DNA from: Marsupella aquatica
Taxonomy: Eukaryota; Plantae; Marchantiophyta
Direction: 5' to 3'
Assembly: GCA_973895155.1 (NCBI GenBank)
Contig: OZ316896.1
Coordinates: forward strand, 10,241,525-10,305,524
DNA length: 64,000 nt
Shown: positions 19,515-44,288 of the stretch, piece after piece
How the letters are laid out: every line of letters begins with the position of its first letter
Position numbering within the stretch: the stretch's first letter is position 1
Notes under the pieces: model-generated
What the model was told of the DNA's origin: nothing
The model's database searches: none
Seen by the model: only the letters and a program-made list of their open reading frames with translations
Position numbers and translations under genes: made by a program

Positions 19515-19716
19515 ATATATAGTTAACCAAGAAAATGTCTCTATATGAGTACTCCATCCGATGGCTTATAGGCTACGGCTTAGTTCTAGTTAACCCTTGC
19601 ATTAGGGGGAGGGTCTTTTGGCCCTACTGTCTTGAACTTCCCGCGGATCGAGGAACTTGTAAGGAAAAGACAATGTTATGAACCCTCTCAAGACGTGAGT
19701 CAAGGGGGAGTTAATT

Positions 19717-20039: not shown

Positions 20040-20483
20040 ATTCTCTTAGGGAGATGACCCAAAAGTGTGTATATCAATGGCAGTCAAACTGTTTGCTACC
20101 CATGTATTGCCTGCACAAACACACCTAATATATAATTAAATTGCTAACAAAAAATTCTATTGGATCACTTGTGAGGTGTAGACTGTAAAATTGACTCATA
20201 CATAGCACCCAAAACACATATTAGAATCAGGATTATAATACTTCTCAGAGAAAATCTGGTTGGTACCAAAGTTCAGTCAAATGCTTGTCCAATTACTATA
20301 ACCTATAATATAGTAATGATATTAACTTTGATTCAAACAAAAGTCAATAAAGAGTGAATGTTGGTCATATGTGGGATGTTTTAGATGTGGGGGAGACAAC
20401 TAGAGACATGAGAGGGAACTCTAGGGTATAGGGCTTTTGTTGTTAAGGACACATTCAAACTTTACTTAGATTGAGACCAAATT

Positions 20484-20848: not shown

Positions 20849-23699
20849 AAATTAAAGGTACGCTACAGACCATCACTTGTAAGCAAACTGGTCAGGCAAA
20901 ATAACAACCAAAGGAGGTGAGAACTTGTCACCCAAAGGTAGGATTGAGAGTGACTAAGTGGGTATAGCAAGTGTAGCTTGAGATTGAGCTACACTCCAGT
21001 TTAGCAAACTACACTAAAGGACCAATCTCCAAACGCATGAGAAAACTCAGGTTTTGCAAACTGCACTGATCATCAAAATTTATGCTAAGTAAGAATTAGA
21101 GTTAATAACATTAATATTGGTTAAAATGATCTTAAGTCCAAACTAAGTAACACTTATCTTTTCATTTGGTTTTTCAGAATAACTTTTTTCCACTTCTGTC
21201 TGATTGTTGGTAAAAAATTGGTGATCTTGTGTTACTGTAACACTAATTCTTGTGTATTTTTCAAAGTACTTTTTCTCCTCTATTTTTCCACTCTTGAAAC
21301 CACAGTAACTCTGTCACCAATTCATGGGTAGAGTCCAAAATGTTTGCTCTCAAATTAGTGTAACACTACTTAGGGTGAACAGTGTACAAATTTTCACAAT
21401 TTCACAGATTTTCAAGAAGCTATACTATCAATCAGGTCTAGGACAGATTTGAACCAAAAGTGGGAGCAACAAACCTGCAAAGCGTGAGGAAATGTTCTCT
21501 CTCTTCTCTGCTCAACCTGTTAGTTTGCTCTGGTCTTGCTTAATTGCTGATCGCTTTCTTGATGTAGGACAACTGTTTTTGTTTAGGTAAAGTTAAGCTC
21601 TTGCTGATACCCTTACATTGTAAAGGGTCTTTGAACTCTGTCCAAAAGTTTAATGTTGCAAAGGAACCGACTTACAGCAAGGAGGATGCAAGCCGGGATG
21701 CAAGCAAGGCAACAATAGCCTGCAGGGTGTCTCAAAGCTTCAATAGCAACTGAATCATGGCTTTGCACAGGGTTGTGTAAACGTTTTTTCTGAAGTCAGT
21801 GTCTTTTTTCACTATCCCGTACAGTGACTTTTTCTCCCTAACCTTAATTACTCCTAAACTCCATCAATTATATTTGAAGCTTTTAGACTCCCTAGAGAAA
21901 CGGCAAGAAAGGTGGAAACAGAAAAGTCCCACAATGTTACAACTCCAAAATTGAAAAGTTTTCCCTCTTCCGGTTCTGTTTCCTTCTTATGTGGAACAAA
22001 GCTCGAGTATGTGTAGCGCTGAGGTCCAGCATGGACAAGTTGCCTACTGTAGTTTATTTGCAGTATTGTGACTCAATATGTACATAAGTGACACATTTTG
22101 GGCAAACCTTGCTTGCCCCCGCAATTCGAGGAGGGAGGGAACCCCTTTTTGCACAAACCATCTATGACAGTCAGTTACAAATAACCCCATTAATCATTAG
22201 CTATATATTCATGGTTGGATAAAACACAGAGAAGTAGGATTGGACCGTATTTGAATTTCATATTGAAGATTCCCAATGCAAGGAATTGAACCAGTGGTTT
22301 GCAAAGTATGTATATCATTTGCACACGGAAGCAAATGGCCTTGAAGAAGTCGTCAAAGGGGGGCTCCACGCCAGTCTCAATCTACAGATTTGGTTCCCTC
22401 ATGCTGTTGGTTAATATCCAGAAATCATTGAGTACATATTGGTAGATACCTTCGCAACATCCACTCTGGTCCAATCCACTACCAAATTGATAGTTAGCAT
22501 GTCTCTGGTACTTTTGGAAGGCAAAATTTTGACTTCGTCCCTTACATACGAAAGTACTCGGTCAGTACTATCAGATTTAATGGACGTGCATACTAATTAA
22601 GTCAGTGACACTCTTATCCATGTTGCCAAAAAGGTGCAATCGATGGGCCTTAATTCGACAGCTCCCGTCTAAACCAATGCGTATTGAATTCTGATGGATC
22701 CACCACTAGCAAAATTCTTGGGACGCTTGGGATGAGATAAAAATAGTCGCAGTGAAAGTGAGCTTGCCAGCACTTGTTCCAGTTGACCGTTCACTCGTTG
22801 GGTCTGTGGTACTTGGGCACAGTTCCTCCAACACTTTTGGTTTCTTTCGTGACTTTCCCTTCATTTCTTCACGACAATCTAGTAAGTTATGGAGAGTAAG
22901 GATACAGGAGTAAGAATCGTAATTTGCCCTACGTCCACGGCCTCGAGTTTGCAAGTCTCCTTTGGCAGTGAATGGTTTCTGGAATGCTACTCCTTGTTGT
23001 GAACTTGCCAATCTCCTGACGTGCGGAAGCGAATCTGAGTTCCTGTACTCAGTTCACTACCTTGTCGGTGCTATCCCTCGGTCAAAGAACCGACACCTAT
23101 AATACGATGTCCAAGGTGCTGAATATTACGTGCACTGCATCCACCGATCCCGATCAACACTCATGTGCCACCAGTTATTGATTTATCAGCATCCAGTGAT
23201 TTTCTGGATTTCAACCATGAACACAAGGGGACTGAATGTTGCTGCGGACATTCTCTGCGTTTTATCCGACCCGAAATGTAGCAAAGGATTAAGAAGGTTA
23301 TTTGTATGATTTCCATCTCTGTAATAAGATGCTAGCTTTGTACACAAGGAGGTTCCCTCCCGCCCTAAGTTAAAGGGGCACACACGAGTTTTGCCCAACA
23401 TGTGGCACTAATGTACATGATACTAGTCACAATTATATGCGAAGTGTCCTCCAGTGGGTGACTTGTCTATGCTGGACCTCAGAGCTCCACATACTCGAGC
23501 TTCGTTCCACCGAGCCAGTGTCGATGTCGAGATGACTTTTGATCACATGGCAAATTCCAAGAGGACCCGAAAGGATTACACATTACTTGGAGAAAACTAA
23601 GGATCGAAATTAAAGGTAAAAGGGTTTGCTAGGCGATCTGGATGCAGTTGACAACCAGCCGCACTAGAGTATTTCGTCCACAATCCAGTACAATCCCGT

Positions 23700-25225
23700 C
23701 CAAATTAAAGAAGTTCTATGTCTTCTAGCTAACCGACCAAACAATTCCATGGTCTCATGTTCGACATCGTTAGCCTTTGCCGTTTGTTCTTGCTGACGAT
23801 GTGTTGCGTCGGCGTTCACATCATCCATGTTGTATTGCTGGCAACTGCAACTGCAACTGCTTGCTGAAATCATGATACTGCTGCCCGGTGAATTCGAATC
23901 ACGTCCCTTTAGGCACCACAGCTTTGTACTTGTAGATTAGCATCAGCAGGCCTTCGATACTTGAGCCTAATACCGAAACCTTGTGGTTACTTGGAATACC
24001 GAAGCCTTGTGGTTGCAATGGGCGGGCAAATCCGTAAACTCGAAATGAATTTTTTTTATGCACTCGTTGATGCGCTCTCGACGATGCTGTTCAGCCAGCC
24101 TATGTGCATAAGCAGTCCTAGTTCTTTTGCCGGTGCTGGGTTGTTCTGGAAGAAGTTAAGGGGTTCTGGAATTGCATCGAGACTTGGCACTCCCATTCTA
24201 CTTCGATGGCTTTCTCCTCTCCTGCAGCTAGCCGTTTGCTCCGGCAGGCTGGCCTCCCGTGACGGGTTCCTTCTGTCCTCTGGGATCGGACAGAGAGATG
24301 AGCTCTAGCTTGGCTCTGCGCGACTGCAACGTCGATGAAGCACCGAGAATTGCTTCTTGTTGTTAGTGTACACCGACTGCACTCCCATATATTCTGCTTC
24401 GCCTCTCCTCTCCTGCAGCTAGCCGTCTGCTAAGTTTTACCAGTGGCCCCATGCCACCGGCCAGCTAGTACTCTTGCTAATTTTAACAGCAGCCACATCG
24501 GGCCCCGATGCCCCGTCAGCCTGGTACTGTTGCTAATGTTCGACGAGGGCCGGCAAGCGGGTCCATGACCCGTGACTAGTACTCTTGCTAATTTTAGCAC
24601 CAGCCAAGAATTCTCGATTAACACATAGCCCCAACTTATACATGGTAGATGTGAAGTTGGTCTGATGCGGCAACCGTGAGCGGACAGATTTGGAATCTGG
24701 GACCAACAAAGCTGCAACACCAACGAAGCTATTCTGGTGAGCGGACAGATTTGGAAACCGGGAACAACAATTAAAGCTGCAACCCCAACGAATCTATTCT
24801 CGAGACCTCTAACTACAGCTGTACAGCAGGATGGGTCCTCCTACTTCGGAGGGCAAACGCAAAATGCAAGATGAGCACGTACCTTCACACGATGGGGACA
24901 GTAAGGATGATGTTGGACCAGAACCCCGTCCAGAATAGCCCAGAAGTAGGACTGCTGCGGCACATAGGTTGGCCGAAAAGCCTCGTTCGAGAGCCGCATC
25001 AACGGGTGCATTACAAAGTTTCATTTGGAGTTTACAGATTTGGCCGGCCATGATATATTCCAATCACAAGGCTGGTATTAGACTCAGGTATCGAAGGCCT
25101 GCTGATGCTCATCTCTAAATACAAAGCTCTGATGCCTAAAAGGAGGTAAAATTTCCAACACTTCACCGGGCAGCAATATCATGATTTCAGCATGCAGTTG
25201 CAGTTGCCAACAATACAACGTGAGG
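23700..25225. pseudogene. Head-to-head pair of decayed bHLH copies (minus about 23700-24180, plus about 24870-25225)
   Basis: DVNADATHRQQEQTAKANDVEHETMELFG on the minus strand; the plus copy has gtatcgaaggcctgctgatgct, the reverse complement of agcatcagcaggccttcgatac at about 23940-23960. Confidence 0.75.
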
Positions 25226-25239
25226 ATGATGAGCACATT

Positions 25240-27330
25240 GGACGTCAAGGAGCGATCTCCTGCCTGCATTGAAAACCCCACACGATTTCAGGCCAACGAG
25301 GATGCATGGGAGATTTCAGGGACTGGATATAAATTGTAAGTGAAATAAGCAGATGTTACCTAGATCTTCTAATTTAGTTCACGTACCAGGGAGATGACTT
25401 GGTCTTCAAACTAAAAGAACTGCAAGGAATTTGGGAATGCTTGATGCGATGGGATGCGAAGTACGTTCGAGGAACCTAAAACAAATAGCCCTACCGAGAT
25501 GTCAGTCCATCCGGAAAGAAGTTCAGCTAGCAGGATTTTAGTTCCCGAATTGAAACAATTCTGGAACTAATAACAACTTAGTAGAGAACTAAAATAAACA
25601 CGTACTTATCAAAAACACATGTCGACGCTCGTGGAGCCATAAGGCTGCAGTAGAAGCTGCTTTGATTGCTAGAGGAACTCCAGGTGACAGGCCTCAGACC
25701 GGAAACACAATACACAGAGCCGTCGATTATATTGCTGCAAAACGATAATTTCATATAGCTCGGTGAGAACTGTGCATGGTGCCTGTCAGCAATATGAAGG
25801 AAAAGATGAATCCAGGGTTGGTTCAGTACCTTCTCGACGTCATTCCCTCTTTCATTTCTCGACCTACACGAACTTTCAAGTATGGACATTTTCTTACACG
25901 GACTTAATTTCAAGATGCGCGTTACAACGTTGCGGGAATGTAGCCCGGCATCCTGCGCTTTTTCACAGCATCCTCAATAGTTACTTGCCTCGAGGTCTGC
26001 GAATCATAAGATTGATATATTAAGGAATGGAGAGAACAGCGTTTAGAGAACAGTTCTTAACATCAGCAACAACGGCTGTCACGAGAAATTAGGTCCTTAA
26101 GATCGGAACGTAATTATACGACAACGTACCTTCCGCGCGTCTCGATCTCTTGACCTGATCAATTAGTTTTCAAAAACTTACTGGGGTCATCGATCTCTGC
26201 CATAAGAACGTCAGGCTCGGCGGCCTTTTCCACAGCATCAAACAATTCTTATCCTTATTCATCCTTCGCTTCTTGATGGTGATTTGGAAGTGTCGCAACA
26301 ATTTTTGAGTTCCAGTATATATAGCTTCCTCCGCTGCTTACTGTAGCGAGCCTGATCCACAGAAAGGTTCCACAGTGATCTTTATTCTAGGATTCTATGG
26401 CCAGCGTCCACTAAATCCACTTCTAAGTAAACTTGTTTTCTACTCTGGGCATTTTTCAGCTGATCTATCGAATAGTGCAAGTGTGCAGACAAGATGCAAA
26501 CCTTCGCTCAAACGGGTTCGAAGCTAGTTCTTCCGCACGAACGGACCGGACCATAGAGGTACCGCCAGCAGATGTGATTCGATTGAAATTGACATTATTT
26601 TCCGTAAAACAAGCAGAAACTGCTCAAAGAGTACAATCACAAATTAATGAGAATTAAGCATGAAGGCGCAGAAATCGAACTACAATTATACGATTCATGA
26701 AGTTTGTGTTGAATTTTTTCCTGAAACAACTGAATGCAAGGGGTAGAACGAAAGGCGAATGCCAAATTTATTTAGAACGAATGTCAAAAATTCAAGAACG
26801 AATTCATGTTGAGAAGTCAAGACGAATGTCGCCAAGTCAAGATTGAACGAGCATACTCAAGATGCCAGACATTCTCGGCGCCCATGAAAAGGATCCATGA
26901 AATAAATTTCTAGACGACAGGCAGGTCGACCGAGTTACTACAACCTCCTCTTCTATATATATGCATCGAAAATCAAAGAGCTTTTACCATCCATATATGG
27001 TCCCAGTATAGCCCGATGATGAAGTTTGCCAGTGTAGGTGTTCCTTGGAGGCTCCATTTTCATCACTATCATGGCGTATCTATTGCTGAGATAACAGGAC
27101 CATTGGCCGTGAAGCTGAAGATCAAATCGCCTTCTATTGTAATTCGAATTGCAGATCGACGGCCACACAACTCCGCGTCATATCTGCACCGTTCAGAAGG
27201 AACACAACGACGAATGATGGAGAGAAATAAACAAACCATGAATCAGACAATCGCTGACTTCGGAAGTACTTGAGAACACCATGGCGAATAGAATCCTTTG
27301 TACTTAAGCTCGTCAAGAACAGTACCCAAT
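25240..27330 (-). pseudogene. BRCA2: 5'-truncated BRCA2 duplicate
   Basis: GSVYCVSGLRPVTWSSSSNQ (ORF 25578-25913) and colinearity with the 5' copy up to cttaagctcgtcaagaacagta. Confidence 0.85.
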
Positions 27331-28055
27331 GCCAGATTAGAGCTCGTCAACAACAGTCGATCGTCCTATTTAATCTCGACTGCGCAGTAAAACACAGGAG
27401 CTAGCTAGAAGCAGATCGACGTCCAATGATCGGGAAACATGAGCACAGACTGAAAAAACGAGAGCTGCGACTGAACATACGCGCTCGAACACAAGAGAGA
27501 TACCAATTCACGTACAATCTATACCATCAATAGCAGAAATGAAGACTGTGAGAAAGGGGCACTCCATTTAACAACACAACAAAGCGACAGCAGTCCAGAC
27601 GTGATGCAATGCAAACGAGGTGGCGCGGCTTCCGATACACAAAGGGCTGGCCGCGTACGTCCCGCGCGCTTGTCACACTGCACAGCCCGTTAGGCGCTGG
27701 CTCGTAGATTGAATAGATTCTTCGCTGTCTTTGCTGTTCTTGTTGATCACACTTGAATGTGACCACGCATATCTGTAAGTAATGCATGTCCTGTCTGACA
27801 TGTAAACATCGACCCTGACTAGTCCCAACAAGATTTTACTGTCGCTGGTCCAAAGGTAGGGAATCAGCCGGAGGATGAGAAGAGTACAGGAAAACAAGCC
27901 ATGGAAATTGGTTGGAGACCGAAGCACACGAGGCAGTGCCTACTTCACTCTTGAATTTCCTGATCTGATCACCGACCTAGTCACCAGGCACCCATCACGC
28001 CTGCATGAGAGAGTTGTAATCAGCCGGGTAATCAGAATGTCGTCATACTCGTTGC

Positions 28056-28357: not shown

Positions 28358-29302
28358 CTAATAAAGCCCTAGCATTTTTCTCAAATAAATGTGTTTGTCT
28401 TTTGGAAGTCCTTTGGTGAGAATGTCCGTTGCCATTTCCTCGGTGGGACAATAGATTACTTCTATTTCACCACTATCAACTAGTTCCCTACTAAAGTGAT
28501 ATTGAATATCGATGTGCTTGCTCCTATCATGAAGCCGAGACGCTTCAAGTAAGCTAAGAGCACTTTGATTATCACAATGAATGACGGCTCTTGCTTGCTG
28601 ATGATGCAAGTCTCCAAGAAGTCTTTTCAACCATACTATCTCAGTGCATGCCTTTGATAAGGCCATGTACTCTGCTTTGGTGCTAGACCCTACAGATTTT
28701 TGCTTTTTGCTTGCCCAACTCACTACTGCACCTGAGAGCATGAAACAATAACCAATCAGAGGTTGATCTTCTTGTGTCAATATCTCCTCCCCAATCAGCA
28801 TCAGTATATCCATGTAAGGGAATAAAAGATTTTGATCTTTTATACACCAAACCCATACTTGATGTGCCCTTCAAGTACCGAAAAATTCGCTTCACAGCCA
28901 TCCAATGCTTTGGACCTGGATTGGACATGAATTGTGCCATTGATCTAACTGCATAGGATAAGTCGGGCCTTGTGCAGATCATAGCCCACATGAGGCTTCC
29001 AACTGCATTCTGGTATGGTCGGGGGTATGGTACACTCTCCATCTGTAACTTTTCATCTTCAGTTTGTGGGCTATCCTCCTTGCTTAGCTTTAAGCCCAAC
29101 TCAACTGGAGTATGCACTGCCTTGCAATTCTCCATGTTGAAAGTGCTTAATTTGTCCAAGATGTATCTCTCTTGAGACATCTTGAGCCAACCCTCTTCTC
29201 TGTTGTGGGAGATTTCCATACCAAGGCAATTATGTATATTGCCTAAGTCACTCATCTCGAATTCCTTCATGAGTGTCGTTTTGACTTCAGCTAATATGTT
29301 GG
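28358..29302 (-). pseudogene. copia-2 RT C-terminus and RNase H (frameshifted)
   Basis: FEMSDLG, YQNAVGSLMWAMICTRPDL, GYTDADWGGD, IHCDNQSA, RSKHIDIQYHF. Confidence 0.93.
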
Positions 29303-30918
29303 AACATGATGTCGGACCTATCGAGAAGGGTGACCACCCTTCTCGTTTTTCATGATCAATTTTTTTTCTAAGGCATGTAAAACCCGATACAAATTGTGCA
29401 TTCCAGAAAAATAGTCATCCATGATTAGGAGGAATGCAAAGATCGATACGGGTATCGACCTTTGCATTTGTAAATTCTTTGGTTATCAGGAATTTACAGA
29501 AATGGTGAAACTGTGCATAACCGCGCAGTAGGCTCTAACTATGGTTAAGTTTAACTAGGGTTAAGCTAGAAATTAACCATAGCTACCTCCAAAAGTATAA
29601 ATATGACTGCCCGCTCATGGAAAAAAGTTTCATTTTTTCAAGTCCTCTTTCACAATCAAGCTCTCACCCAACCCAAAGAAAACCTCCTCTCCATACAGAT
29701 GCGCATTCTGGTCTTAACAGTAAGCTTTCCACTTTCCAAAGCAAACTGTGAGACTCGTATCGTAATCAGCTTTGTAGAAAGCAACTTGCGATACTTGTAT
29801 CGTAAGTTGCATTCAAACCTAAGTTTCAAACCCTCAACAATACAGGTATCGCTTGGTGCATTGAGCCAACTCAATTAGTCTCATGGTGCAGGAGTGAAAA
29901 TACTTCAATCATGGTTTAGATTCTGTCTCTTGAAGATTGTAAAGCCGTTTGCTGCTCATCTCGCAGTTCTTCATATTATGTTGGGGCCCTTATTTTCTCT
30001 TGGGTAGCTGTTGGTCGGATCCGAAAGCCAATAGCGATACTTGTATCACTCTTTGGATTGAGTAGTGTAGATTTAGGACGGACTGCGCTGCAAAGATCAT
30101 TGGACTGGGTCACTCGTGACCTCTAAGGTGGACCTGACAAAACCCCACCTAAACAAACACAAATACTTTGTTCCGTTCGCTTACAAGCAAAAATGTGCCC
30201 AGCAAAAGTTGGGCTCGACAATCTTTTGAGTGCCCAAAGAGTGACGGCCTCGTGTCTATATCCTCTCCCATACAATGTTTCCCATTTTTTCTTGTCTTTG
30301 TGAGAGCTCGTGTGAGAGATTTTGGAAAGGAGCATTGTTTGGCTAGAGAGGAGACTGAGGAGGTGGAGTGGCCTGGCTGATTCAAAAAGAAATAGTTTTA
30401 CCCTGTAGGCAGCACCAGAACAAGTTCTAGAGGTGGCGCAAATGAAGACAGTGCGAACCATGGTTTGTACTGTGAAAAGGATTTGGTCTGCTTCTTGAGT
30501 CATTTCCCTTAGTTGGTTTTGCACAAATAGTTTTTGAGGCATTCCGTGTGGCTTGTGAAAGACATATGAGATAGTCGTATTGCTTGGAGTAGGAGTCTTT
30601 GTGTTTTGTCATCAAAAGAGGAATCGGCGGATGGATTGGAAAGTGTTGACCCAATCCGAAAGCAAATTGCGGTGCTTGTATCTCTCTTGGGATTGAGTCA
30701 TGTTGTTCTCAGAATTAAGCTGAATTCAGTAATCCCAGTTAAAACATCAGAAATTAACTAGAGACTCCATTAGAGCCTGCAATCTTGTATCTGTAGCCCG
30801 ATCGTGGATTCATGGATCCTCTTGGGGGTTTGTAAGGTGTTGGCTTGTTAAGAAAGCAAAGCTTGTTCTCTCGTTCTTCTCTCTCTGCTCAATGGCAACA
30901 TTCCCAAAGAGCGGAGGA

Positions 30919-31633
30919 AGACTTGCAAGTCCCTGGGCCCTAAGCGTTACTAATACAGGGAGGACGTGCGAACATCGCAAGGGTATTTTTAATGTAATGC
31001 AAACTAATTTTTATAATAGTTTTTAAAGTAGGCAACATCCTTGTATATATATTCAGCACAATATTAGTAATAAGGCTCTTATCAAATACATGTCACATTA
31101 ATCTTATGCAAGGGTACCCAAAATGCCAAGTACACGCGTCACTATATGGTTGGCACACATGTCATCACTTCACTTGCACACATGTTCATATAGTAAATCA
31201 GACATTTAATTATTTGTCGTCATAAGGCAAGTTTGGTTTCGTGGGCTTTAGGAACACTGAGAGGATAGTGCAGCCATGCTTGTCTGTATACTACAGGAAG
31301 AACTATAATTCTTTGGTACTAATTTTGTTTAACTATATAAAATATGTACCCTAAACAAAGGGCGTAACATACAAGTCCCCTATGCAAAATAAAGTCTTAT
31401 CTATTTCAGTATGATATTTGCAATTTTAAAAATTCAAGGATGTTTTCAATTCCTTGAAAAACTATATTATAATTTACAAAAGGATAAAATTTAATAGGAA
31501 AAGTTAATATTTTTACATTAACAAGGGGATTTTTTTTGTGAACAAAAATATTAAGAAGGGGTACATGGGGGGTGTCTGTTCTCAGGGGGGTTCACTTTAT
31601 ATAGTAAGAGTGAGGGCCCAGGGTTGCAAGTCT
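30919..31633. repeat. ~33-bp inverted repeat flanking an AT-rich spacer
   Basis: agacttgcaagtccctgggccctaagcgttacta (30919-30952) versus tagtaagagtgagggcccagggttgcaagtct (31602-31633). Confidence 0.75.
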
Positions 31634-32220
31634 GAAGGACTTAGAATTCATCGCTGTCAATTTGGCCATTCCCACAATAACAATCATGACATAGTACTTG
31701 CTCAAATTGATGCAGCCAAAGGGCGACGAAGGAGAGGACAGTGAGTTGATCGTAGTCACCACCGGCAGAGAAGGAGTTGCAGCTTGTCATGTCTGTCAAT
31801 CTATCTTTCCTTTTGTTCCAATTGTTTTGTAAGTTGCTCTTTTGCATCGCTGCGGGCATTGGCGATTCTTCTGCGATTTTGAGTTTTGAGAAGCAGATTA
31901 AGTGATCAAACTGATAGTTTACATTGATTGCCAGTATCGTCGGCCTTTCTTCATTTTTTGAGCTTCCTGAGCTTCAGATTTGACTCACCGGCACTACATG
32001 TCATTGTGCAGATGGACAACGATAGCCTTGACCCTTGCTGGATTAGAACCGCATGAGAATCAATAGCAGCTCCCAACAGACGCCCCTGCTCAAGGTTCCT
32101 AGACCCAGTAGAAAGCAACTTGGATGCCGTATTCAGAAGAAAGCAAAGCGCGATACTTGTATCGCTCGTGGGATTGATCAAGCAGTGTAGATCTCAAATT
32201 TGATCTGCCAAAGGAAAACA

Positions 32221-35200
32221 ATGGAAGGAAGTGCAAGGACAGGGTCTGCTGAGACCGAGAACCTCATGACAACTTTGTGTAATGTGATTTGGACGACAGA
32301 AGATATTTGTGATGAACAAAAGTTTGTGAGGAGACCTTGGTACTTTCGGGATACTCGAATGATGTCCAAGGAAGTAGCTGACTGGGAGACACCCGTTCTT
32401 TGGGTTCAAGACTTAGTGAAGAAAACAGAGAAGATTACACTCTCCTTTGGTCCAGTAATTGGGGTTGCCGCATGTGACTTTAAGAAGGGTCATGGGAAGG
32501 AAAATCTGTCGCTATTGGATTGAGCTTCCTCACAATGTGTGGAAGCAAGGGTTTTGTGGCCCTTGTCGTGGACATGGATTTGTATGATCTCTCAACATTA
32601 GACAAATTTCCCGAAGACCCTATTGTGAAGGAAGTCGCGAGTACAATTGAGATGGAGATCTTCAAGCCTGAGTGGGTTGCTAATGTTGTGGATGATTCGA
32701 GTCCTTTGATGCTGCCGTTTGTCCAAAAAGAGTATAAGAGACTCGTGGGTGAAGAGTTTAAACCCACACGAAGGATCAAAGTAAGGAAGCCAACCATTAG
32801 CAGGAGTGGCGCATCTTCAGTTGCAAAAGGAGTTGATTGTGCTAGTGGGAGCGGGGGACATGGGAAAGGGAATTCCCAAGTAGAAGCTACCATGAGAGTG
32901 ATTCTAGGTGAAGCACCTCAATCTGTAGAGGCAAGCCCAGGCGCTACTGCAAGTGTTGGTCGTGGTCGAGGTCGTGGTCGTGGAAGAGGTCGTGGAAGGG
33001 GAGTTGTGGATGAATTGGTACCTGTCGAGGCAGAGGTTCCATCGCCATCAACTTCACTTGCAAAGAAGAAGAGGACTGGTTGGATTGGAGGCATAGGAGT
33101 AGCTCTAGCTGCAGATTCAAGTGGTGCAATAAGCACTCCAGCTGTGTCAATGCATCAATCCAAAGAACGATTACCCCTTACCTCAGGTCCAACCTCAGCT
33201 GTCGTTAGCATTCCCCTGGTAAGTTTATTTGTCTAGAAAAAATGAATGTTGGGAGCGATACTTGTATCGCGCATTGCATTGAAATAATGAAAATGGTTTG
33301 CATTTTGAATTCTTCTTAAAATTCATTGCAAGCCATGTTATTTTTCAGGGAGATGAGGAAGAAGAGACGCCGTTGGCTTCATTTGAGACAGATGCCATCA
33401 AGGCTGAACTTGCAAAGCTCATGCTTGAACGCAGAGTCCAGAGGACCAGTGTGCTTCTGCATGTCAATAATCTCATTTTTGAAGATGAGGGTGAGAATTC
33501 AACTTTAGTTAGACCTGTAGATCGGCTACATGTAGAGAACATCAAAATGTTGCTCATGAAAAACCCTTCCAACTTCACGGCTCCATTTGTTGTTGTAGTT
33601 GATCCAACAGATTGTCCCACAATTCATGAGTGGGACATTACTAAATCTAGGGTATGGAAGTATCGAGTGATTGGCGGTAATCATGGAGCTCGTGCAAAGG
33701 CTGAACTTTTCAAAATGTATGGAAAGCAAGTGTACGGTGAGATTGAGGCATGGGTTTACTCTGGTCTAACGAGACATGAGATCAGGATGCTGGCTTTCCA
33801 GCATAACTACGACCAGGAGTACCATAAAACCATGACATCGATTGACAAAGTTCGTGCCTGTCACAATATTTTCATGGAAATGAATGTGGGGTCAACTAAA
33901 GAGGTGCGAGAAGCTTGTTGTAAGGAATGTATGCTTGATTACACTCCAGGTGTTCGTGACTCAATGGCCAAACATGACCCTACATTTCAGATTGCCTTTC
34001 GATCTGGGGAGATTTGGGAGCTCCAAGATAAAATTTTCTCTATGTGGCAAAAGTTTGAGATCCTTGGTCAAACAAAGCCAATCGTGGCCAAGCAGCCGTC
34101 AGCAACATCAAAAGGTAAATCAAAAGCTAAACCTAAACCGCTGAGTGCAAGTGAAATCAAAATGAACAAGCTCTCTGGGCATTTCAATTTGAGGGTCTTC
34201 AGAGCTCTCCAGGGGCTTTCCCGAGGGCTTTCCAATCAGGAGCATGTGAAGCGACTCCTAAACAGAGTAATTGGAAAGAAAATCACTCTAGAACAAATGT
34301 TCAAAGAAGGTGAGACACTTAAGAAGTTGGCAAAGGTAAAGAAATTGTTCCTGCAGATTTCTGGTCAAAAAGATTGGGCAACATGCCGGGAAATGTTTCC
34401 CCAGGAAACTGATGTGAAAGTCCTTTCAACTTGGTGCGAAAAGCTCACAGAAGCAGTAAGCACAATGTCCTTATGGCCTTTTGTTTTCAGTTATATATAT
34501 TCAAAGCAAACATTTGAGATATTGAATGCAGGTAGTGTTACTTGTATCACTGGTGGCATTCAAAATTTGTGTTTGGAAATCTTACAAAGAGTTTTGTTTA
34601 ATGTGCAGTTCAAAATCAGTTCAAAGAGGAAGAAAAAAGTCATTTCTGGAAATGAATTTGATGAGGTCGTGGAGGTCGAGATTCCTTCATGCGACATCCC
34701 CTACGTCTTCAAGAACTATGTTCTTGAAGCAATTGAAAAACACAATCAGAGACTGAATATCTCATCAATTGCTACTGCTTCATCTCAACATCAATGGAAG
34801 AATGCAAATGGAGACGCATTCTCATATTCTCTTCATGTTGGAGATATTCGGAAACTAGAAACCTTTCTAGAGCCAAAACATTTCACTTTGGCAATTGCAG
34901 ACATCCCGTACGGTTTCAATGCCCCTGGTTTTCAGTTTGACGAGGAACCTTTCACTGAACAGGATGTAAATGAGATGGTTACTAATTTTGCTAAAATCAC
35001 CACCTCTCCATTGTGGAGGTTTGTTGTGATCCATTCCTTGCAGCAGACAAATAGCGTTATGAGCGCACTTGAGAAGGTTTGCAATTGCGGAGTTGAGGCC
35101 GGTATATGGGAGAAGACAAACATCCATGAGCACCCTTCTGGGCCAAGGCTAGCTTGGGCCTTTGAGAACTGGTCAATTGGTTATTACAGTGAGGATGGAG

Positions 35201-35724
35201 TCCGAAAGAAGGAGATGTACAATTTTGCTCCTGATGAGTCCAAGGTGAACATTGTGAAAGTTCCCTGTGTTACTACAAAGTCTGTGAGTCCATTAGGGTT
35301 TATTGTAAACCCTTTTAAAAAACCAATTGCATTGGGTGATTGGTTTGTTAATCATTTCAGTGAGAAAGGGGACTGGGTGGCAGACCTTTGTTGTGGAACC
35401 GGGTCAACATTGGTGACTGCACTTCTCAACTCTCGGAATGGGTGTGCTGTTGAAAAAGGTGAGACTCAGGTAGAATTTTTGAGGAGTCGGATTATGACAT
35501 TGGAATCTGTTTGGACTCTATACGATGAAGCACAAGTGTCCGGTGAAGGTGGCCAGGGACAAGAAGTCCAGCCTCCGGTTGGTGGGCAGTTGGGAGTCAT
35601 TGGTACTAGCATTTATGTGGATACTGATGACCAGGAGGAGCCTGAAGAAAATGAGCCAAACATTGAAGAAAAGCTACCTAGAACACCGGACGACAGGGAA
35701 CTCAATGATATGTTGTTAGATTAG
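32221..35724 (+). CDS. ParB/Srx-like domain plus beta-class N6-adenine/N4-cytosine DNA methyltransferase fusion; spliced; probable frameshift near 32500
   Basis: ParB-like segment VRPVDRLHVENIK...PFVVVVD...YRVIGGNHGARAKAEL. MTase motifs HVGDIRKL...TLAIADIPYG (motif IV) precede KKPIAL...FSEKGDWVADLCCGTGSTLVTA...GCAVE (motif I), the beta order. A phase-0 GT-AG intron at 33219-33348 fuses ORFs 32520-33236 and 33298-35724; a second in-frame intron is likely at 34456-34608. The N-terminal part has (GR)n and KKKR. Confidence 0.85.
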
Positions 35725-35889
35725 ATGTGTGCAATAACACTATTGAGGATTTATCAAGGCTTTCTATTAATGATTGAGAACCTTGATAAACATATCTCTA
35801 TTTGAGGTTTGAAATGCAATTGGCGATACATGTATCGGATGTAGCATTCCCAACAACATTCCTACCTATCTGCACTTTTCCTACTCTAA

Positions 35890-38696
35890 CTAGTCACAGT
35901 CATCTGCATCAATGATTTCCGTGTCGAGCATTGCTGCTTGGATGATTCGCTTTGTTTGTACTGGAAGCGTGTTGTTTGAGAGTAGTGCAAAATTATATGC
36001 ATAAATTACAGTTTCTGAGAGGCACAATGTGTCCTCAAGTAATTTGTTAGAGGATGCAGCTTTTTCAGGGTAATATTGACCTTCCATAGCAGACCCTTCT
36101 CGAGAATCCATTGTATACCATACAATTTTGATGTTCTCTGGAACATCTTGTACTTTGGATAGAATATCTATGACTTTTGCCATCCAAAATGGTCTGCTGT
36201 TTGGATCCCTATATGCAGCCACGCAAATCATTGCATATTTAGTGTTCACTTCAAGATCTTTGAAGTCTCCCTCGACTGCTTTCTTCTTCCTTGTTCCAGA
36301 GTACATGACTGTTGTTGCACCTGCAATTTTATCTAGCAAGGTTGGCTCTATTTGTGGGGGAAGTGCATTTCTTGGAGTCTCTACTCCAATATTTGATTTT
36401 GGCCACGTCCAATCAAAAACCCATTGTCCTGCCTTCAAGTGGTGTTTAATCACTTCTTTCTGGTTGTCAAAGAAACGGAGCCACCAAAGTTTATCCTCAT
36501 CATCAAAATAATTGAATCCATCTTCAATTGATTTGCGATATTTCTCCAGGACTGCAACATGGTTGCAGAGAAGACGCTCGTCTCCATTGCCTCCGTCATC
36601 ATGTTCATCATTCTCCACTGTTGCTCCGGTTGTAGATTTCAATGCCATTTGTGCAGCAACCCACATGGTAGATGTGGGGATGTATCTAAGGAACTCCACT
36701 GCTTCTCCCCAACTTTGAGTGCTAGAAAGATGCTTTGCGTGAAACAAAGTCGAAGTTCCTCCATTCTCTCCTACAACCCTCTTCATCCTAAATTGCTTTT
36801 GACCACTAATACCATGTAGAGGACACAAAACATGCCCAATACCTCCCATGTCATTGGGTTGGTCTTTATCCGACACAAACTTCTTGAAATCAGCAACCTC
36901 TTCAACAAAAATTATCTCAGCCTTTGGATTGTACGAATCCTTGAGAATGTCTGCAAGACTATCCACCCGAAAAGCTTTTCGCTTATTTAATTTTAAGGAG
37001 AACTTGCTGAACATTTGGTCAATCTGATCATGGGTATGTCCAACCAAAAGAAAACCAACTTTGATCTTTTGGAAAACCCTCATCTCAACAAGCATATTCA
37101 AATATGCCATGAGAAATTTATTTTTATTTTCTCGAGGGGTATTATCAAGTTGTAGATACAACACTGGAGGGAGTGGACCTTCCCAACTATTTAAAATATG
37201 TTGGATCACATGCACTGTCAAGTTGGTGTCATTGTGAATGTTTGGATAATTCAAAAACACTTTTGATGTCAAATGTCCATTGAACACCAAACAACCCACC
37301 ACATGTACCGGAATAAAGTACTTCTCGTCCATGTTTTTGGGGCACCTAGTGAAATGTGGCAACTCAGTCTTTTTTTGATCCATACCATCAATGCAGATCC
37401 CCAAATATTTTTCTGGACTCTTATAGCACTTGCTTCGGTGCTTTGCTAATTTCTCCCTCTCAACTCCTTGTGCTTTCCGATGTTGGTTCAAAAGTGTTGA
37501 ATATTTTCCTGTCAAATGAACGTCAATGTTTTTGTCAATAATAACCGCATCACCAAACCAAACAAGTAAATAATGTAGTACTTAACATCAATCCTTTACT
37601 TATTTAAAGGTAGACACAACTTACGTTTTTCTGCTTCAAGTACTGCTTTGTCGCGAAGTGCTTTGAACTCTGTGCAAGGACCGCATGTGGAGAAGCGACT
37701 CTTTTTTGGAATACGCACCCTGGGGAACTCTTTGTTCCAGATGCGAACAAACCAAGAATATGTGATCTCGGTTTCCTTCCGCACCATAGTATCAGTCTTG
37801 AAAGCATCAAATACTTTAGCTTTCGTCCAATTGTCTGGTAAGTGGAAGATGTCCTTGTTTGGAAGACTTTCAACATTTGACATGAAAAACTCATTCAACC
37901 ATTGAACTAGTGAAAGATGAGTAACCGATTTTTCCTTGCAAAATGTGTCATTTTGAATACGAGAAAACGTATTCCTTGAGATTCTCTGCAGCCGATTATT
38001 TCCAACGGAAAATAATTTCTTGAAACCTTCTCGACAAAAAGATCTCCCGTCAACAATGTAACCGGTTGGACCACCGTGCCCACTTTTCAAACAGCCCCTT
38101 AGAAGTATGTTCTTCTCGGTCGATGATAAGCCATAATAGAAGGTCCGGTGTTTTGTCACTAAATCTAGACCAAAATATCTCAAACACAAATTATCACAAC
38201 ATGGGTACTTAAAAACTTCTTTCATTTTTTTTGTCTTTAAATTTTGATTTGTAACATTATCTTTCCTCACAAGCTTGTCTCTCACTTTCTTGCTAAGCTC
38301 CTTTTGTTTCTCCATACTGTGAAATCCATGGAGTGAATGTTCACTCTCTTGTCTCTCTGCAACTTCCAGAATAGAGCCATTAGTATCTTTTGAGCTACTA
38401 TCATCTGAAGATAGAGTGGGATTTCTCGGATCACTAAAGAGATGACTATAGCTACTCTCGCCCTCATTTGTTTCCAAATATTCTGATACAACTTGTGCAA
38501 TGGCTTGCGACTGTCTATTTTCCTCAACATCTTCCTCCTCACTTGACTCATCAGAAAACACTATTGGACTTCTTGGTTCTCTGTACATAATTCGGACTCC
38601 GCTAAAACTAGTGAGGCCTCGTCTAGCAACTTGAAGACATCTAATTGGCTGTCTAGAAACACTCCTAGTTGCAGAAGTGGGTCTGGTGGTCATCAA
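35890..38696 (-). CDS. DDD/E transposase, Sola1-like, two coding exons (about 900 aa); start uncertain
   Basis: A phase-1 GT-AG intron at 37624-37509 joins the 366-aa and 541-aa ORFs (AEK-R-KYSTLL). Cys clusters CCDNLC...FC and FSTCGPC; catalytic-type motifs ICIDGMDQ, YLQLDNTPRENKN and FLLVGHTHDQIDQMFS. It lies inside TIRs with a 4-bp TSD. Confidence 0.85.
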
Positions 38697-40536
38697 TGGT
38701 GTGTCTTAATTGTTCCCCAAACTTGTATTGTGTACATGAGCGGCTGCCATTGGTCCATTGATTGGAGAAGCATCGAATAATCGTTGTACACATCTCCCCA
38801 CTGCAATTTGAGATTGCGCAGATTCTGGACTTTGTAGTCCGTTGTCTTTGCTGTTGCTGGGAACCAGTTCTCTTTGACGCAATGCAAACGGCGATCCACG
38901 TACCGTTGTGTGTATTGTACCTTGCGTTCTCATGTCTGTCCCAAGAACTATCCTTCGCTGCACCTGTGGCAAAACTAATTCCCTCAAAGGCAATGCAAAT
39001 GGCGATACACGTATCGCTGTTTGCATTCGACCTTCTCTTCTCTCCTCTGGCACCTGTTGGAAACTTGAAGCGTCAATTGGAGATCCCAATCTCGTTGCCG
39101 ATACGTGTATCGTCTTCTTGATTCCTTCACCATACCCAGGGATAGACGGTCTAAATCGACGTCTAGAACCTAAACCTTGGATAGAAAGCTTTTGCATGAC
39201 TCGCTTTCGCTATGGCTCCGGTGGTTTTTTCCCTTAACCAGGCCACTGCCTATAAGTCGCCGGCTCATTCTTCAACAGGCACGCGGCCGAGGGGAGGGAA
39301 TGTTTAGGAGCCGACATTTATCAGGTTTACTAGGTGACACATAGTAAGCCCCAGGTTCTGGTTCAGAACTTCCATCAGAATCAGAGTCCAATATTTCGGG
39401 TACACTCTGTTGAGAAACTGGGAGTAATTTGCAAATGATTTGGCAAACATCGACGACCATGAGGACCACCATTGGGGGAGGACTCAACTGAACTGGAGGG
39501 CGACCACTCTTTAGACATGGCTAACGTATAACTAACTCTATACTGGTGGGCATTCCTGTCACAAAATGCTCTTATGCTCAAAAAACTCAAATAGACGCAT
39601 AACTTTGTGAAACAAAATGGTGCAAAAAACTTAGTCGGCGTTGATGTATTTATAGTTTTTGGTGACCCTGAGCCACGTGGCTACTTCTGACTGGTCAGCC
39701 GCTACACGACAAAATAGATTGGGTGATTAAAAAAGGTTCAAATTAGTGTTTTAACGACAAAATTAATGTACATGTTAAGTGTTTCCTCCGGGGTGGATGC
39801 AATTTTTATTCTATTTGGGATATTGTACTGTGGGTTGCTTTAATCAACCATTGAGACAATTTGGTTCTAGATGCGATACAAGTATCGCTTTTTGCATTTT
39901 GGGGTGATTTTTTCAAATTGGTCCTGTAAAAGGTGCACATATTGTGCTTTGGAGTTATGTACCATAGTTTTGCTGATTCACAATCACTTTTCACGATGGT
40001 TAGGCGGAATGGTTACCATGATTTTGTCACTTAGTTTACTTTTTGGTTAAAAGTAGATCAACTGCGTTGAACTGTGTAGTAAATTTTGGGCAACTATGAT
40101 GTAACTTTTCAAATTGTTGATAGTAAATTTTTTGAAAGGAGAGGTTGAGCTACTTTTGGAGTATATTCTCAAATGATGAATGTGGTTTGCGATACGAGTA
40201 TCGCTAGTTGCTTTCCTTTATATGTTTGGGTTTGGAAGCAAAACTATTTTCCATGTGTACAAGTTGACGGAAAATAAGGATTTTCCATGTTGGAAACAAA
40301 GTTGAACGTTGTCAACAACAAACAGTACATTTCGGAAGTTTAAATATATATAATGAGGTAGTCTGTGGGCATTGCTCACCCCTTCAATGAAATCCCATCT
40401 ACGATACAAAAATGTAACTATTGGGATATTGCGGAATTTTGGATCGCTATTTGTGTCATTTCAACAAAATTGGCGAGAATGAAAAACACCCTTCTCTATG
40501 TGCGGAAATACTTCTCAATTGGTCCGAAATCATGTT

Positions 40537-43500
40537 TTGGTGTCATTGCTTGCAAGTATGCAATCATCAACATATAGAGCTAATATCACAAAGTTTCCTC
40601 CTGACTCATAATAGTACACATTTGAGTCAGCTATGCACTTTCTAAAGCCAATGCTTAACAAGAAAGTGTCAATCCTCTTATACCATAACCTAGAGGATTG
40701 CTTGAGGCCATATAATGCCCTCAATAGGAGACATACCATTTCAGGGTCAAGAATTTTCTCCAACCACTCTAATCCTTCAGGCAACTCCATGTAGATTGGT
40801 TCCGTGAGTATACCATTCAGAAATATTGTCTTCACATCTAAAAGGATGGCCTCAAGGTCATAAAAGACCACCAAGGATAGAATGAGCCTTATAGATGTGA
40901 TTTTCACTACTGGTGAAAAAGTATCCAAGTAATCAACCCCATAGACTTGAGAATAGCCTTTGGCTACAAGTCTAGCTTTGTATCTTGCAATGCTTCCATT
41001 CGGGTTGTACTTCAACTTGAAAACCCACTTGCAGCCCACCGCCTTTCGATTTTGAGGAAGCTTGACTATGGTCCATGTGTTGTTTTTCTTCAATGAGTCT
41101 AACTCATCATTAATGGCTTTCCTCCATTGCTCTGCATCTGGTCTTGTAAGTGCCTCCTTCAAAGAAATAGGTTCCGCCATTCTTGGTCCAGATTCAGTCA
41201 CTAGGGCCACAATGGCTGAATCGGAGTCAAAACCATATCTCCTCGTTGGTATCTTCTTCCTCTTTCCCCTTCCAAATTCAGGTTCTGAGAATTCAACGTG
41301 AGTAGAGGCATCACCTTCTATTGAACCTTCAAATTCATCAAAATGTGTTGCAAATGATTATGTGGACCTGGATCGTGGTAGTGGACTACTTGGTTGTGGT
41401 CCTCTTGAAGTAGATGTGCCTGACATTTCAGTAGCCTCTTCTCTAACATCAGGTGCATTAGCTCCCACTTGAGCTAAAGCCGGTGCTCCCACTGGTGCTA
41501 GTGCTGGTGCTCCCACTGGACCTGGTGCCGGTGCTAGCACTGGTGCTCCCACTGGAGTTGGTGTTGGTGCTAGTGCTATTGGAAGTTCAAATAGCACCGG
41601 ATCATCCAACTCTGAAGTAACTGGGCCTTTTCCACCGGGCTGGTCTTCTTTAAATCGAACATCTCTTGCCACAATCACTTTGCGATCGGTTGTTCGTTGA
41701 ACTCTATAGACATCTCTTGATGTGGAGTCTTCTGGATATCCCAAAAAAATACAATCTTCGGCATGATTGTCAAGCTTCCCTCGATGGTTTTTGTTGATGT
41801 TAAGATGTGCTCTACATCCAAAAACCCTAAGATGTGACAAGTTTGGTTTTCTCCCATACCAAAGCTCATATGGTGTCTTGTCGGCATCTAGTGCTTTTGT
41901 GGGTGTTCGATTTTGAAGATAGTTAGCTGTATGAATAGCTTCCCCCCAATAGGATTGAGATAGACCTGAATGATTCAACAAGGATAGAACTGCCTCCACT
42001 AGTGTTCTATTCTTTCTCTCAGCTACTCCATTTTGTTGAGGAGTCTCTGCAACTATAAATTGCCTTGCAATCCCATATTCCTTGCAAAATAGGTCAAAGG
42101 TTGTCGACTTGTACTCTCCTCCATTGTCAGACCGCAACACCTGAACCTTTTTGCTGGTTTGTGTTCCTGCAAGAACTTTAAACTCTTTGAATTTCTCAAA
42201 GGCTTCTGACTTGTGCCTCAAGAGATATATGGTACAATATCTCGAGAAATCATCAATGAATGTGATGAAGTAGACATAGCCTGAATGAGTGGCAGTGCGA
42301 ACTGGGCCACAAATATCTGAATGAACTAAGGCAAGAAGTTCAGTTGCCTTTGATCTTCCACCCTTTGGATATTTCAACTTTGCAGACTTTGCCTTTGCAC
42401 AGGCTCCGCAATTAGACAAAGAAACTCCATCAAATTTACCAATGCCTTCCACCATGTTGTGGTCTTGCAGTTGTTGCATTCTAGCTTCATTGATGTGGCC
42501 AAGCCTTTTATGCCACATCGCCCCACTTGTTGTGATAGCAATATTTGCACTATGGAGGCTTACAGTTACACCAAGTTTATATAACTTGTTAACAGTAAAG
42601 CAAGTACTAATGATAGAGCCACTTGGACTTTTCAAAGTACATGAACCTTTCTTGATGATAGCCTCTCCTCCTTCTTCATCAAGTTGATTCACTGAAAATA
42701 GGTTCTTTGTGAGACAAGGTAGATGAAGCACCTTGTCCACCATCCTCACTGAACCATCTTGGAGTTTAATGGGAATACTTCCCACTCCAGCAATTTTCAA
42801 GGTCGAATCATCTCCCAAATACACTACTTGGGCATGATCCCAAGCTTTGTATTCCACAAAGCTTTCTCGATGATGCGCCATATGTTGGGTTGCAGCTGTG
42901 TCCACATACCAACTTGAATCTCCTTCATCGAAATTCCCAATTGATGCCACATACAACTTATGTATGACTGAGTTCGCTTGAACCTTCTTGGCATCATTTC
43001 CCTCCTTGGTACCCTTGCTCTACAGTCGCGAATAAAATATCCTTTCCGTTTATAAAAGTGACATTTCATCTTGGAAGCTTTCTCATTCCATGGTTTTTGG
43101 GAGGTGCTAGCCTTCCCAAAATTACTACCTTGTGAGATGGTAGATTTCGACCCTAGCCTTGAGTCAATGTAAAGTGTTGTTGTCAACCCTGCCAAGTCCT
43201 CCATTTTTTGCATCGTTTCCTCTTGCAATAGATATGCAATCAAGGACGGAAGAGTAAGAGTTGTATCCCTCCTTAGAGGAATAATTGCCCCCCTCCAATT
43301 TTGAGGCATGCTCCTCATGAGTACCAATCGTGCATCCTCATCTGACACTGGTGCTCCCGTTGCATTAAGTTGCTCCAAAATTCCCCTTAAAGTATGTACA
43401 TGCTTTATGACGCTTTCTCCTTCCTTCATCTTGAGAGTAGCCAACTTGTCATGAGGATACATCTTGGTTATGGCATCACTTGCTTCAAACATGTTGAGAA

Positions 43501-43780
43501 GTGTTGACCATGCTTCTGCAGCAGTCTTGGCACTACTGATATGATGTGCTTGTGAATTCTCCATGCCTTGTGTCAGAATTTGAAGTGCCTTGTTATCTTT
43601 GTGATCCCACTCTTCCAATTCATCTTTTGTTGGGGTGTACGTTGGAGTTGTTGTTGGCTTCGGGCTAGTGCCATCAACAATTCCCATCAGCTTCTCATCT
43701 TTGAAACTCAAAGTCAGTTTTCGTTTCCACACTTGGAAATATGTGCCATCAAACTTTGGGATCTTCATGTTTGACGTCAT
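40537..43780 (-). pseudogene. copia-2 gag-PR-IN and RT N-terminus
   Basis: IPKFDGTYFQVWK (gag), WYVDTAATQHM (protease), WHKRLGHIN, HSDICGP, RSDNGGEY and PQQNGVAER (integrase), RYKARLVAKGYSQ, ALYGLKQS and LYVDDC (RT); frameshift near 42990 and a stop at 41358. Confidence 0.95.
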
Positions 43781-44288
43781 GTTGAGCCGTTGCTCAATAG
43801 AAAAGGACCAACGCCTTTGACTGGATCACTATCCAATAATCTTCTTGCCACCGCAAAAAATCTTCTTGACCACTGCAAGAAGCACTGCATTCACAATAGA
43901 ACACTTATATTGTTGCTCACCACAGATGACCTACTCGGAATGCTTTCCGTTGCATCTGCGTCGTCACATTCTTCACAATGCCAAAAACAAAATTTGAGAT
44001 CAAGCGTCCTCTCTCCCAAAACGTGAATTTGATAAACTCTGCTCCTTCTAAAATGCCATCTAATCGTGCTTAGATTTGGCCTCAACTGCTCCCCCCAAAA
44101 AAATCTGTCTTGCTGCCCGATGTACCTGCTTGAAAAACTTTTCTCATCAATTGGTAGGGAATTGAGTCCAATTCTTATTTCTTCAAATTTGATTCAAGTA
44201 GTTCTAGAGGGGGAATCCTCTCTCTAGACCAACTCTCCTCTCCTCATAAGAAATATGAAGTCCCACAATTCAGAAGTAACATAACAAG

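Follow-up and report, generated by a model that had tools for sequence, protein, structure and literature searches.

What would a plant DNA transposon do with a methyltransferase gene and a private set of palindromes? The question is raised by a 64,000-nt stretch of the liverwort Marsupella aquatica (NCBI GenBank assembly GCA_973895155.1, contig OZ316896.1, positions 10,241,525 to 10,305,524), called the window below, in which an element at 29303-40536 carries a transposase gene, a gene fusing a ParB-like part to an amino-methyltransferase (MTase), and 15 palindromes. The answer that we favour, with about even confidence, is that the ParB part, with its helix-turn-helix (HTH), would dock as a dimer on the palindromes in the element's non-coding DNA; that the beta-class MTase part would write N6-methyladenine (6mA), or less likely N4-methylcytosine (4mC), on nearby element DNA; and that this mark would tune the element's own promoters or its transposition. 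The argument draws on sequence and on structure models, and its parts differ in strength. The ParB-HTH part is probably the palindrome binder, the enzyme is quite likely active on DNA, and, if it is active, the methylated base is likely to be adenine; on the role, local control of the element's promoters or transposition and not blanket protection from 5-methylcytosine (5mC), the balance is about level.

Palindromes of the element and its relatives

The exact core GATAC-N2-GTATC occurs 10 times in the window, every time within the element, and the 16-bp core GCGATACNNGTATCGC has 11 matches at up to two mismatches, all within the element, where 0.03 would be expected by chance. A matrix trained on 14 of the sites, which match it by construction, scores 15 sites at 16 or more within the element and none above 10 in the rest of the 64-kb window. 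The consensus spans 36 bp and is bipartite (AATGC-N5-GCGATAC-N2-GTATCGC-N5-GCATT). All 15 sites are non-coding, though non-coding DNA makes up only 43% of the element (57% codes): two fall within introns predicted for the MTase gene, one lies between the two genes' stop codons and three are upstream of the transposase start. The sites, none of which has a strand, are as follows.

29433..29468: palindrome 1, matrix and core match
29738..29862: palindromes 2-4 (starts at 29738, 29778 and 29827), of which the third is the weakest of all 15
30024..30059: palindrome 5, matrix and core match
30659..30694: palindrome 6, matrix match
32140..32175: palindrome 7, 45 bp ahead of the predicted MTase start codon
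33245-33280: palindrome 8, within predicted MTase intron 1
34525-34560: palindrome 9, within predicted MTase intron 2
35813..35848: palindrome 10, between the stop codons of the two genes
38881..39123: palindromes 11-13 (starts at 38881, 38992 and 39088), which lie 190-430 bp upstream of the transposase start
39863..39898: palindrome 14, matrix and core match
40179..40214: palindrome 15, matrix and core match

Relatives of the element were taken from a transposase search of metagenome contigs, of whose 113 confirmed loci 80 were kept (37 clusters at 90%). Related palindromes match 192 times in these loci, against 7.2 times in base-shuffled loci, and 28 of the 80 have at least two. Three relatives with 59-65% transposase identity (L001, L004, L010) share the site family with the 2-bp spacer, placed in the transposase intron and downstream. 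A more distant series, at 35-40% identity, carries CGAT[A/G]C-N3-G[T/C]ATCG in clade-specific variants, with as many as 15 copies arrayed between the gene starts. The half-site sequence is conserved across these families, at 35-65% transposase identity. L032 and L068 have unlike palindromes in similar positions; those of L068 are 18 copies of TAGTCCT-N7-AGGACTA at 2135-3853, with an 87-bp period, upstream of the transposase of an AT-rich relative, and the same type is seen in L073 and L078. The relatives' sites occupy introns and the space between gene starts, well away from the terminal inverted repeats (TIRs). The first-pass annotation had seen at least 14 palindromes restricted to the element, and that count stands, with 15 inside, none elsewhere in the window and related ones in relatives.

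Array spacings in the relatives peak at 31-32, 40-41 and 50-52 bp, or about three, four and five helical turns. Such phasing suggests that the duplex is bound along a single face, with the reservation that the arrays share ancestry. It is very improbable that the palindromes lack a protein partner and are hairpins of RNA or DNA, or a side effect of local duplication. The two halves of a palindrome show slightly higher complementarity than shuffled ones (180 against 169.6 of 255, p 0.015) and the relatives' arrays are tandem duplications, as this explanation would have it, but the excess in complementarity is small, the half-site is conserved across families, the flanks of most window palindromes are unrelated to one another, and the periods are helically phased. 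Because they are internal, two-fold symmetric, phased, non-coding and co-inherited with the fusion gene, the palindromes are likely docking sites for the ParB-HTH part.

A ParB/MTase match was found in 19 of the 80 loci, most contigs being too short to tell. Where at least 3.5 kb lies upstream of the DDE domain, the match is present in 14 of 16 loci, or 13 of 15 once L043, a nested insertion, is dropped. The closest relative with both genes, L001, has them convergent like the window element; the larger series has them divergent. L016 and L029 are bounded by TIRs and hold both genes and palindromes inside, as does L034 with its right end cut; the termini of these three and of L043 read AACAC. 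No target-site duplication (TSD) was seen in the flanks of L016 and L029, possibly because their assemblies are multi-copy. In Riccia the transposase (R1sor_010795) and the ParB-MTase (R1sor_010796) have adjoining locus tags; the nearest named homologs are from Adiantum, Ceratopteris, Riccia, Ginkgo and Chara, and Holothuria has homologs too. A DUF7869 transposase of Branchiostoma (amphioxus; P0082) carries an Ulp1 protease.

Synonymous divergence (dS) is mostly saturated across the relatives while nonsynonymous divergence (dN) is 0.03-0.4. The dN/dS ratio is 0.03-0.12 for the ParB domain (5 of 55 pairs estimable, the others being dS-saturated) and 0-0.08 for the MTase domain (6 of 49 pairs estimable), so both domains are under purifying selection as strong as that on the transposase. 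Co-occurrence in relatives and purifying selection together reject a one-off capture of the MTase gene.

Two gene orders were not counted as clean arrangements. The apparent tandem order of L043 is a nested insertion, in which the left end of one Sola1 family sits in transposase exon 1 of another (L043 4036-4040), so Sola1 elements nest in one another; L072 and L073 have an inverted duplication in common.

The fusion gene and its predicted protein

The ParB-MTase gene is modelled with three predicted exons and encodes about 1067 aa in the form seen in contigs of other copies.

32221..33218, plus strand: predicted exon 1, frameshifted near 32500 here and open in contigs of 3 runs
33219..33348, plus strand: predicted intron 1, GT-AG, phase 0, containing palindrome 8
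33349..34455, plus strand: exon 2, with a ParB/Srx fold, an HTH-like domain and a helical linker in the structure model
34456..34608, plus strand: predicted intron 2, GT-AG, 153 nt, in frame, containing palindrome 9
34609..35724, plus strand: exon 3, a permuted (beta-class) amino-methyltransferase with motif IV (DIPY) before motif I (DLCCGTG)

No homolog of exon 1 was found. In the window copy, a 12-bp duplication near 34213 is private to this copy, FKKP replaces a conserved YQKP (Q in 27 of 28 filled alignment rows), and exons 2-3 differ by nine amino-acid changes from the contigs of three runs. This copy probably makes no working enzyme and would rely on intact siblings.

The ParB part is recognized by its fold. 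The exon 2 model (predicted local distance difference test, pLDDT, 85.9) has Noc, ParB and KorB as its top Foldseek matches (E 1.7e-5). For the ParB N-domain the VIA Z is 10.2 (root-mean-square deviation, rmsd, 2.3 over 99 residues), and the HTH part matches the Spo0J-parS complex with a middling score (Z 5.3, rmsd 4.6 over 97 residues). By sequence the ParB part has no match in PHROGs, PDB or Pfam, save a weak HTH_ParB row at 0.03. A two-copy ParB model scores 0.35 against 0.00 for the best control, with contacts agreeing to at least 52% between runs and pLDDT of at least 67. Of 30 solved homodimers, 21 came up to the mark used for this score, and of 23 monomers none did; the model's pass may stem from likeness to ParB dimers already solved.

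In the ESM Atlas, the two clusters ranked first for the ParB/HTH region (33424-34371; scores 0.96 and 0.95) are from Ascomycota, with DUF3723 (PF12520) in 78% and 22% of their members. DUF3723 is a conserved gene of Starships, and the available part of the Starship preprint makes no mention of ParB. Pfam scans of 29 homologs showed no DUF3723 among the 25 of 31 families listed. DUF3723 may be a ParB-like accessory protein, which we note as a lead.

The MTase part is recognized by fold and by sequence. The open reading frame (ORF) of the fusion matches Pfam N6_N4_Mtase at 7e-6 and 26.5 bits, just under the cut-off of 26.7, and PHROG 67 is matched at 2e-11. The exon 3 model (pLDDT 91.7) finds CcrM first in Foldseek (7e-16; TMq 0.68-0.72), followed by M.BceJIV and M1.HpyAVI, with the rotifer 4mC enzyme also among the matches. 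These Pfam matches and the predicted folds, of Noc/ParB/KorB and CcrM type, agree with the first-pass annotation of a transposase and a convergent ParB/amino-MTase fusion. Protein searches by word index gave no match, either for the fusion ORF or for the MTase alignment at longer lengths; an exhaustive protein search gave 466.

The filled rows of the MTase alignment keep motif IV at D (15/16), P (15/16) and Y (13/17), and the GxG glycines of motif I at 27/28 and 26/28. DIPY is invariant in the related loci (8/8), and the DPPY form occurs in distant homologs. The catalytic motif of amino-MTases is [DNSH]PP[YFW] (PMC4738411), and by the rule given there an aspartate in first place indicates 6mA, although not decisively.

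We see a small chance that the fusion binds its sites as a non-catalytic, KorB-like repressor or activator, or that it methylates RNA or single-stranded nucleic acid and not the duplex DNA of the element. DPPY reads DIPY here, KorB is among the fold matches, one homolog (in Haliotis) lacks the MTase, sites are clustered upstream of both genes, and Iyer et al. describe repeated shifts of acquired N6-MTases to RNA as well as inactive, transposon-borne DIRS MTases. Catalytic D, P and Y and the S-adenosylmethionine-binding glycines are nevertheless kept under purifying selection, and the best structural matches are DNA MTases.

Docking followed by marking of element DNA has several observations to contend with. 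Where DPPY has its first proline, the alignment mostly shows I, A or L. The GxxR arginine of ParB Box II is replaced by GG[N/G/T]H[S/G/T], with H in 26 of 26 filled rows and a residue other than R next to it in at least 25 of 26; since that arginine is required for NTP binding (PMC12704722), a sliding clamp gated by CTP is not assumed. The Haliotis homolog (P0217) fuses the ParB part to a Tudor domain and has no MTase. L054 has the MTase and no palindromes, and L068 keeps its palindrome array with no ParB/MTase match on its 6-kb contig. L068 and L069 have upstream room yet no such match; both are frameshifted copies of the AT-rich clade, whose members L059 and L064 have ParB/MTase matches downstream. 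Most informative loci stem from one series of related assemblies and hence are not independent. The two genes are co-inherited, and a placement test on L045 of site type against the ParB or the transposase tree returned p-AU values of 0.15 and 0.44. In L045 the putative recognition helix reads ESW in place of EPW, alongside mixed GATAC/GATGC sites; this is a single case.

The Haliotis ParB-Tudor protein is conserved in four Haliotis species and is possibly a domesticated gene.

Element ends, transposase and CpG record

The element measures 11,234 bp and lies in the reverse transcriptase (RT) of a copia long terminal repeat (LTR) retrotransposon. Its ends are 26-bp TIRs, identical at 23 of 26 bases, with a TTGG on either side as the TSD. 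Removal of the element in silico leaves the copia RT as one stop-free frame over the 460 nt tested, and the empty-site joint 29298>40537 is present in contigs of three of the four sequencing runs examined. Long element contigs from runs X1 and X2 start or stop exactly at 29303, the pattern expected for a family inserted at several sites.

28358..43825, minus strand: coding region (gag, integrase, RT) of the copia LTR retrotransposon that the element splits; protein-domain matches
29299..29302, no strand: left TTGG TSD, 4 bp; sequence and empty-site joint in contigs
29303..29328, plus strand: left 26-bp TIR, terminus AACAT; TIR match, X1/X2 contig ends at 29303
29323..29344, no strand: subterminal GAGAAGGGTG motif in two inverted copies, with a third copy at 40487-40496
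30931..31623, no strand: later insertion, an element 693 bp long and non-coding, with 22-bp TIRs and TTGCAAGT as its 8-bp duplication
35890..37508, minus strand: transposase exon 2 (DUF7869; DGMD, QLDN, GHTHD)
37509..37624, minus strand: predicted transposase intron, GT-AG; palindromes lie there in L001, L004 and L032, none in the window copy
37625..38693, minus strand: transposase exon 1
39198..39286, no strand: later insertion, an 89-bp 23S ribosomal RNA (rRNA) fragment, private to the window copy
40511..40536, minus strand: right 26-bp TIR; TIR match
40537..40540, no strand: right TTGG TSD; sequence

The transposase matches Pfam DUF7869 at 7e-50, which we take to be the Sola core, and carries the conserved acidic motifs DGMD, QLDN and GHTHD. 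Its two minus-strand exons splice into an 895-aa model with no internal stop, and the gene is convergent with the ParB-MTase gene. A transposase sequence profile found no relative in the PDB, and a search of viral contigs gave no relative of the transposase either. The 26-bp TIR and 4-bp TSD accord with Sola1, and the terminus AACAT shares its first three bases with the described AACCG. As one part of our evenly weighted answer, the element is likely a Sola1-type cut-and-paste DNA transposon, the comparison with Sola1 proteins being by motifs, termini and TSD only. The names of the Sola subgroups come from PMC4455052, and Sola1 is listed in Physcomitrella (PMC9033089).

Boundaries, restored frame and empty-site contigs agree with the first-pass annotation of a bounded element splitting a copia RT, as do the TSD length, the AAC terminus and DUF7869 with its view of a Sola-type element. 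That description was sound on architecture and overlooked the two later insertions and the frameshifted, mutated state of the MTase gene. The 693-bp insertion is missing from long contigs of the 11-kb element; it has very deep coverage in all sequencing runs and probably belongs to an abundant family resembling miniature inverted-repeat transposable elements. The 23S rRNA fragment is probably of plastid origin. An Rfam scan of 38700-40600 gave no match. The element family is young, as the window copy differs from the contig form at only about 20 places in 4.4 kb.

The ends bear on a second explanation, to which we allow a minor but real chance: the transposase binds the palindromes, or ParB bridges or condenses the 11-kb element for synapsis, and methylation is secondary. 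The two genes are co-inherited and site variants track both trees; words like the half-site occur in the TIRs of the window element and of L029; and the array of L068 stands on a contig with no ParB/MTase match. Transposases may moreover be sequence-specific regulators, as the AtMu1 transposase regulates its own copies (2026 preprint), a further point against our answer. Yet the sites have two-fold symmetry and sit inside the element and in introns, no half-site appears in the TIRs of L016 and L034, ParB and inverted repeats occur with Plavaka transposases too, and selection on the MTase is as strong as that on the transposase. The ends carry a separate motif, the subterminal GAGAAGGGTG, which differs from the internal palindrome, recurs as a similar word in the TIR of L029 and is a candidate transposase site. 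This separate motif, and the arrays beside ParB on another transposon superfamily in Bostrychia, favour ParB over the transposase as the binder.

The first-pass annotation had also proposed evasion of 5mC silencing, which the CpG record does not bear out. CpG-forming bases at fourfold sites stand at 0.41 in the element (51/636), 0.36 in copia (52/676) and 1.08 in a host BRCA2-like exon. The genes of the element have thus lost as much CpG as copia (Fisher p 0.84), which counts against a protective mark and, to that extent, against our answer; CG and CHG depletion is seen in copia. Non-coding DNA within 150 bp of the palindromes has a CpG observed/expected ratio (o/e) of 0.50, against 0.62 further off, so there is no CpG shelter near the sites. 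In the window copy 12 of 20 differences are C>T or G>A, five of them in CG or CHG context (42% against a background of 23%), a weak excess.

That the mark protects the element as a whole against 5mC silencing by the host, in the manner of VANC, is accordingly improbable. The palindromes themselves retain CpG (o/e 1.52), and VANC motifs have the layout seen here, in non-coding regions, introns and tandem repeats; the depletion figures and the C>T/G>A excess speak the other way. Blanket escape from 5mC is not supported, because CpG depletion equals that of copia and because Ectocarpus, with the same two-gene design, has negligible 5mC (PMC12477816). The element's CpG record shows no protection; long-term averages would miss protection that is brief and cell-specific.

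Several other features lie in the window. A second copia element (gag, integrase, RT) at about 14000-20040 has direct repeats at 14014 and 19736. A repeat of about 6.3 kb occurs in two copies (about 21760-28040 and 54670-61050) that are 97-99% alike and 33 kb apart; it contains inverted repeats but lacks any ORF of 150 aa, and carries one weak palindrome look-alike (score 9.9, at 24977 and 57912). An open stretch of 620 aa at 3564-5426 (minus strand), with five BRCA2 repeats on a 132-bp tandem unit, is probably a host BRCA2 exon. Another of 216 aa at 52906-53556 (minus strand), in repeated DNA, has a weak basic helix-loop-helix match (E 2e-4).

Comparison with known systems

The first-pass annotation knew of no described eukaryotic transposon of this architecture, a view that no longer stands. 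Sola1-1_Ec32 of Ectocarpus has an 1104-aa ParB-like plus N4/N6-MTase gene on the opposite strand, and binding and modification of its own transposon have been proposed (PMC12477816). It resembles the window element in its Sola1 affiliation, 4-bp TSD and gene arrangement, and the accessory protein is of similar length (1104 aa against about 1067 aa modelled here). The termini are AACCG in Sola1-1_Ec32, AACAT in the window element and AACAC in L016, L029 and L034. Sola1-1_Ec32 differs in coming from a brown alga, in its length of 21.5 kb and in its 282-bp TIR; the proteins are compared by description only. In the main text of PMC12477816, as available, the string "palindrom" does not occur for Sola1-1_Ec32, and the best blastp match listed for that element is Sola1-1_PPa_tp. 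Transposon-borne ParB-MTases have been short predictions in algae, with no target site in the text for the Sola1 case, and the window family supplies a candidate site. Sola1-1_PPa_tp, to judge from its name, is presumably a moss element.

The Plavaka elements PAG2 and PAG3 of Bostrychia (bioRxiv 10.1101/2025.02.11.637652) have a ParB-like gene beside tandem arrays of inverted repeats. Binding and self-modification have been proposed there as well, and the cassette moves between transposon superfamilies. They differ from the window element in that ParB is fused to a 2-oxoglutarate oxygenase, the N6-MTase is a separate SET fusion, the transposase is of EnSpm/Plavaka type and the hosts are red algae.

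It is possible, though doubtful, that a phage-type module of docking site and writer is a portable part of giant eukaryotic transposons (Sola1 in streptophytes and brown algae, Plavaka and Zisupton in red algae, perhaps DUF3723 in fungal Starships), which would give each land-plant family a private 6mA or 4mC mark whose code could be read from co-evolving HTH helices and palindromes. The origin of plant 6mA and 4mC is disputed. An active enzyme would be a transposon-encoded, sequence-targeted writer of amino-methylation in plants; if true, this would bear on that dispute and could yield a small targeted epigenetic tool. The candidate site series (2- and 3-bp spacers; GATAC and GATGC half-sites), with the matching protein variants, makes binding, base and function directly testable.

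VANC of the Arabidopsis VANDAL elements (PMC5735166) is likewise an accessory protein whose motifs lie in introns, intergenic and terminal non-coding DNA and multiply as tandem repeats. The window shares the confinement to non-coding element DNA (15 of 15 sites). VANC motifs, by contrast, are short and non-palindromic, the protein is unrelated and has no MTase, and its demethylating effect was shown by experiment, whereas the window element gives no CpG protection signal.

Phage fusions of ParB with N6N4-MTases, and ParB, Noc and KorB themselves (PMC12704722), offer the same domain pairing and folds, and for ParB palindromic docking is established. The window gene departs from them in being eukaryotic and intron-containing, in lacking the GxxR arginine and in having no ParA partner. 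CcrM, M.BceJIV and M.RsrI (6mA), and the rotifer N4CMT and M.PvuII (4mC), have the permuted fold with motif IV before motif I, as in exon 3; the window MTase is 15-20% identical to CcrM-type enzymes, N4CMT and M.PvuII, and bears DIPY.

The full-text literature searched held no land-plant Sola1 with a ParB-MTase or palindromes; Iyer 2011, Bao 2009 and Repbase Reports, which lie outside that coverage, may describe such elements. Seaweed transposons with the two-gene design have already been published; the Marsupella element adds a land-plant case together with candidate binding sites.

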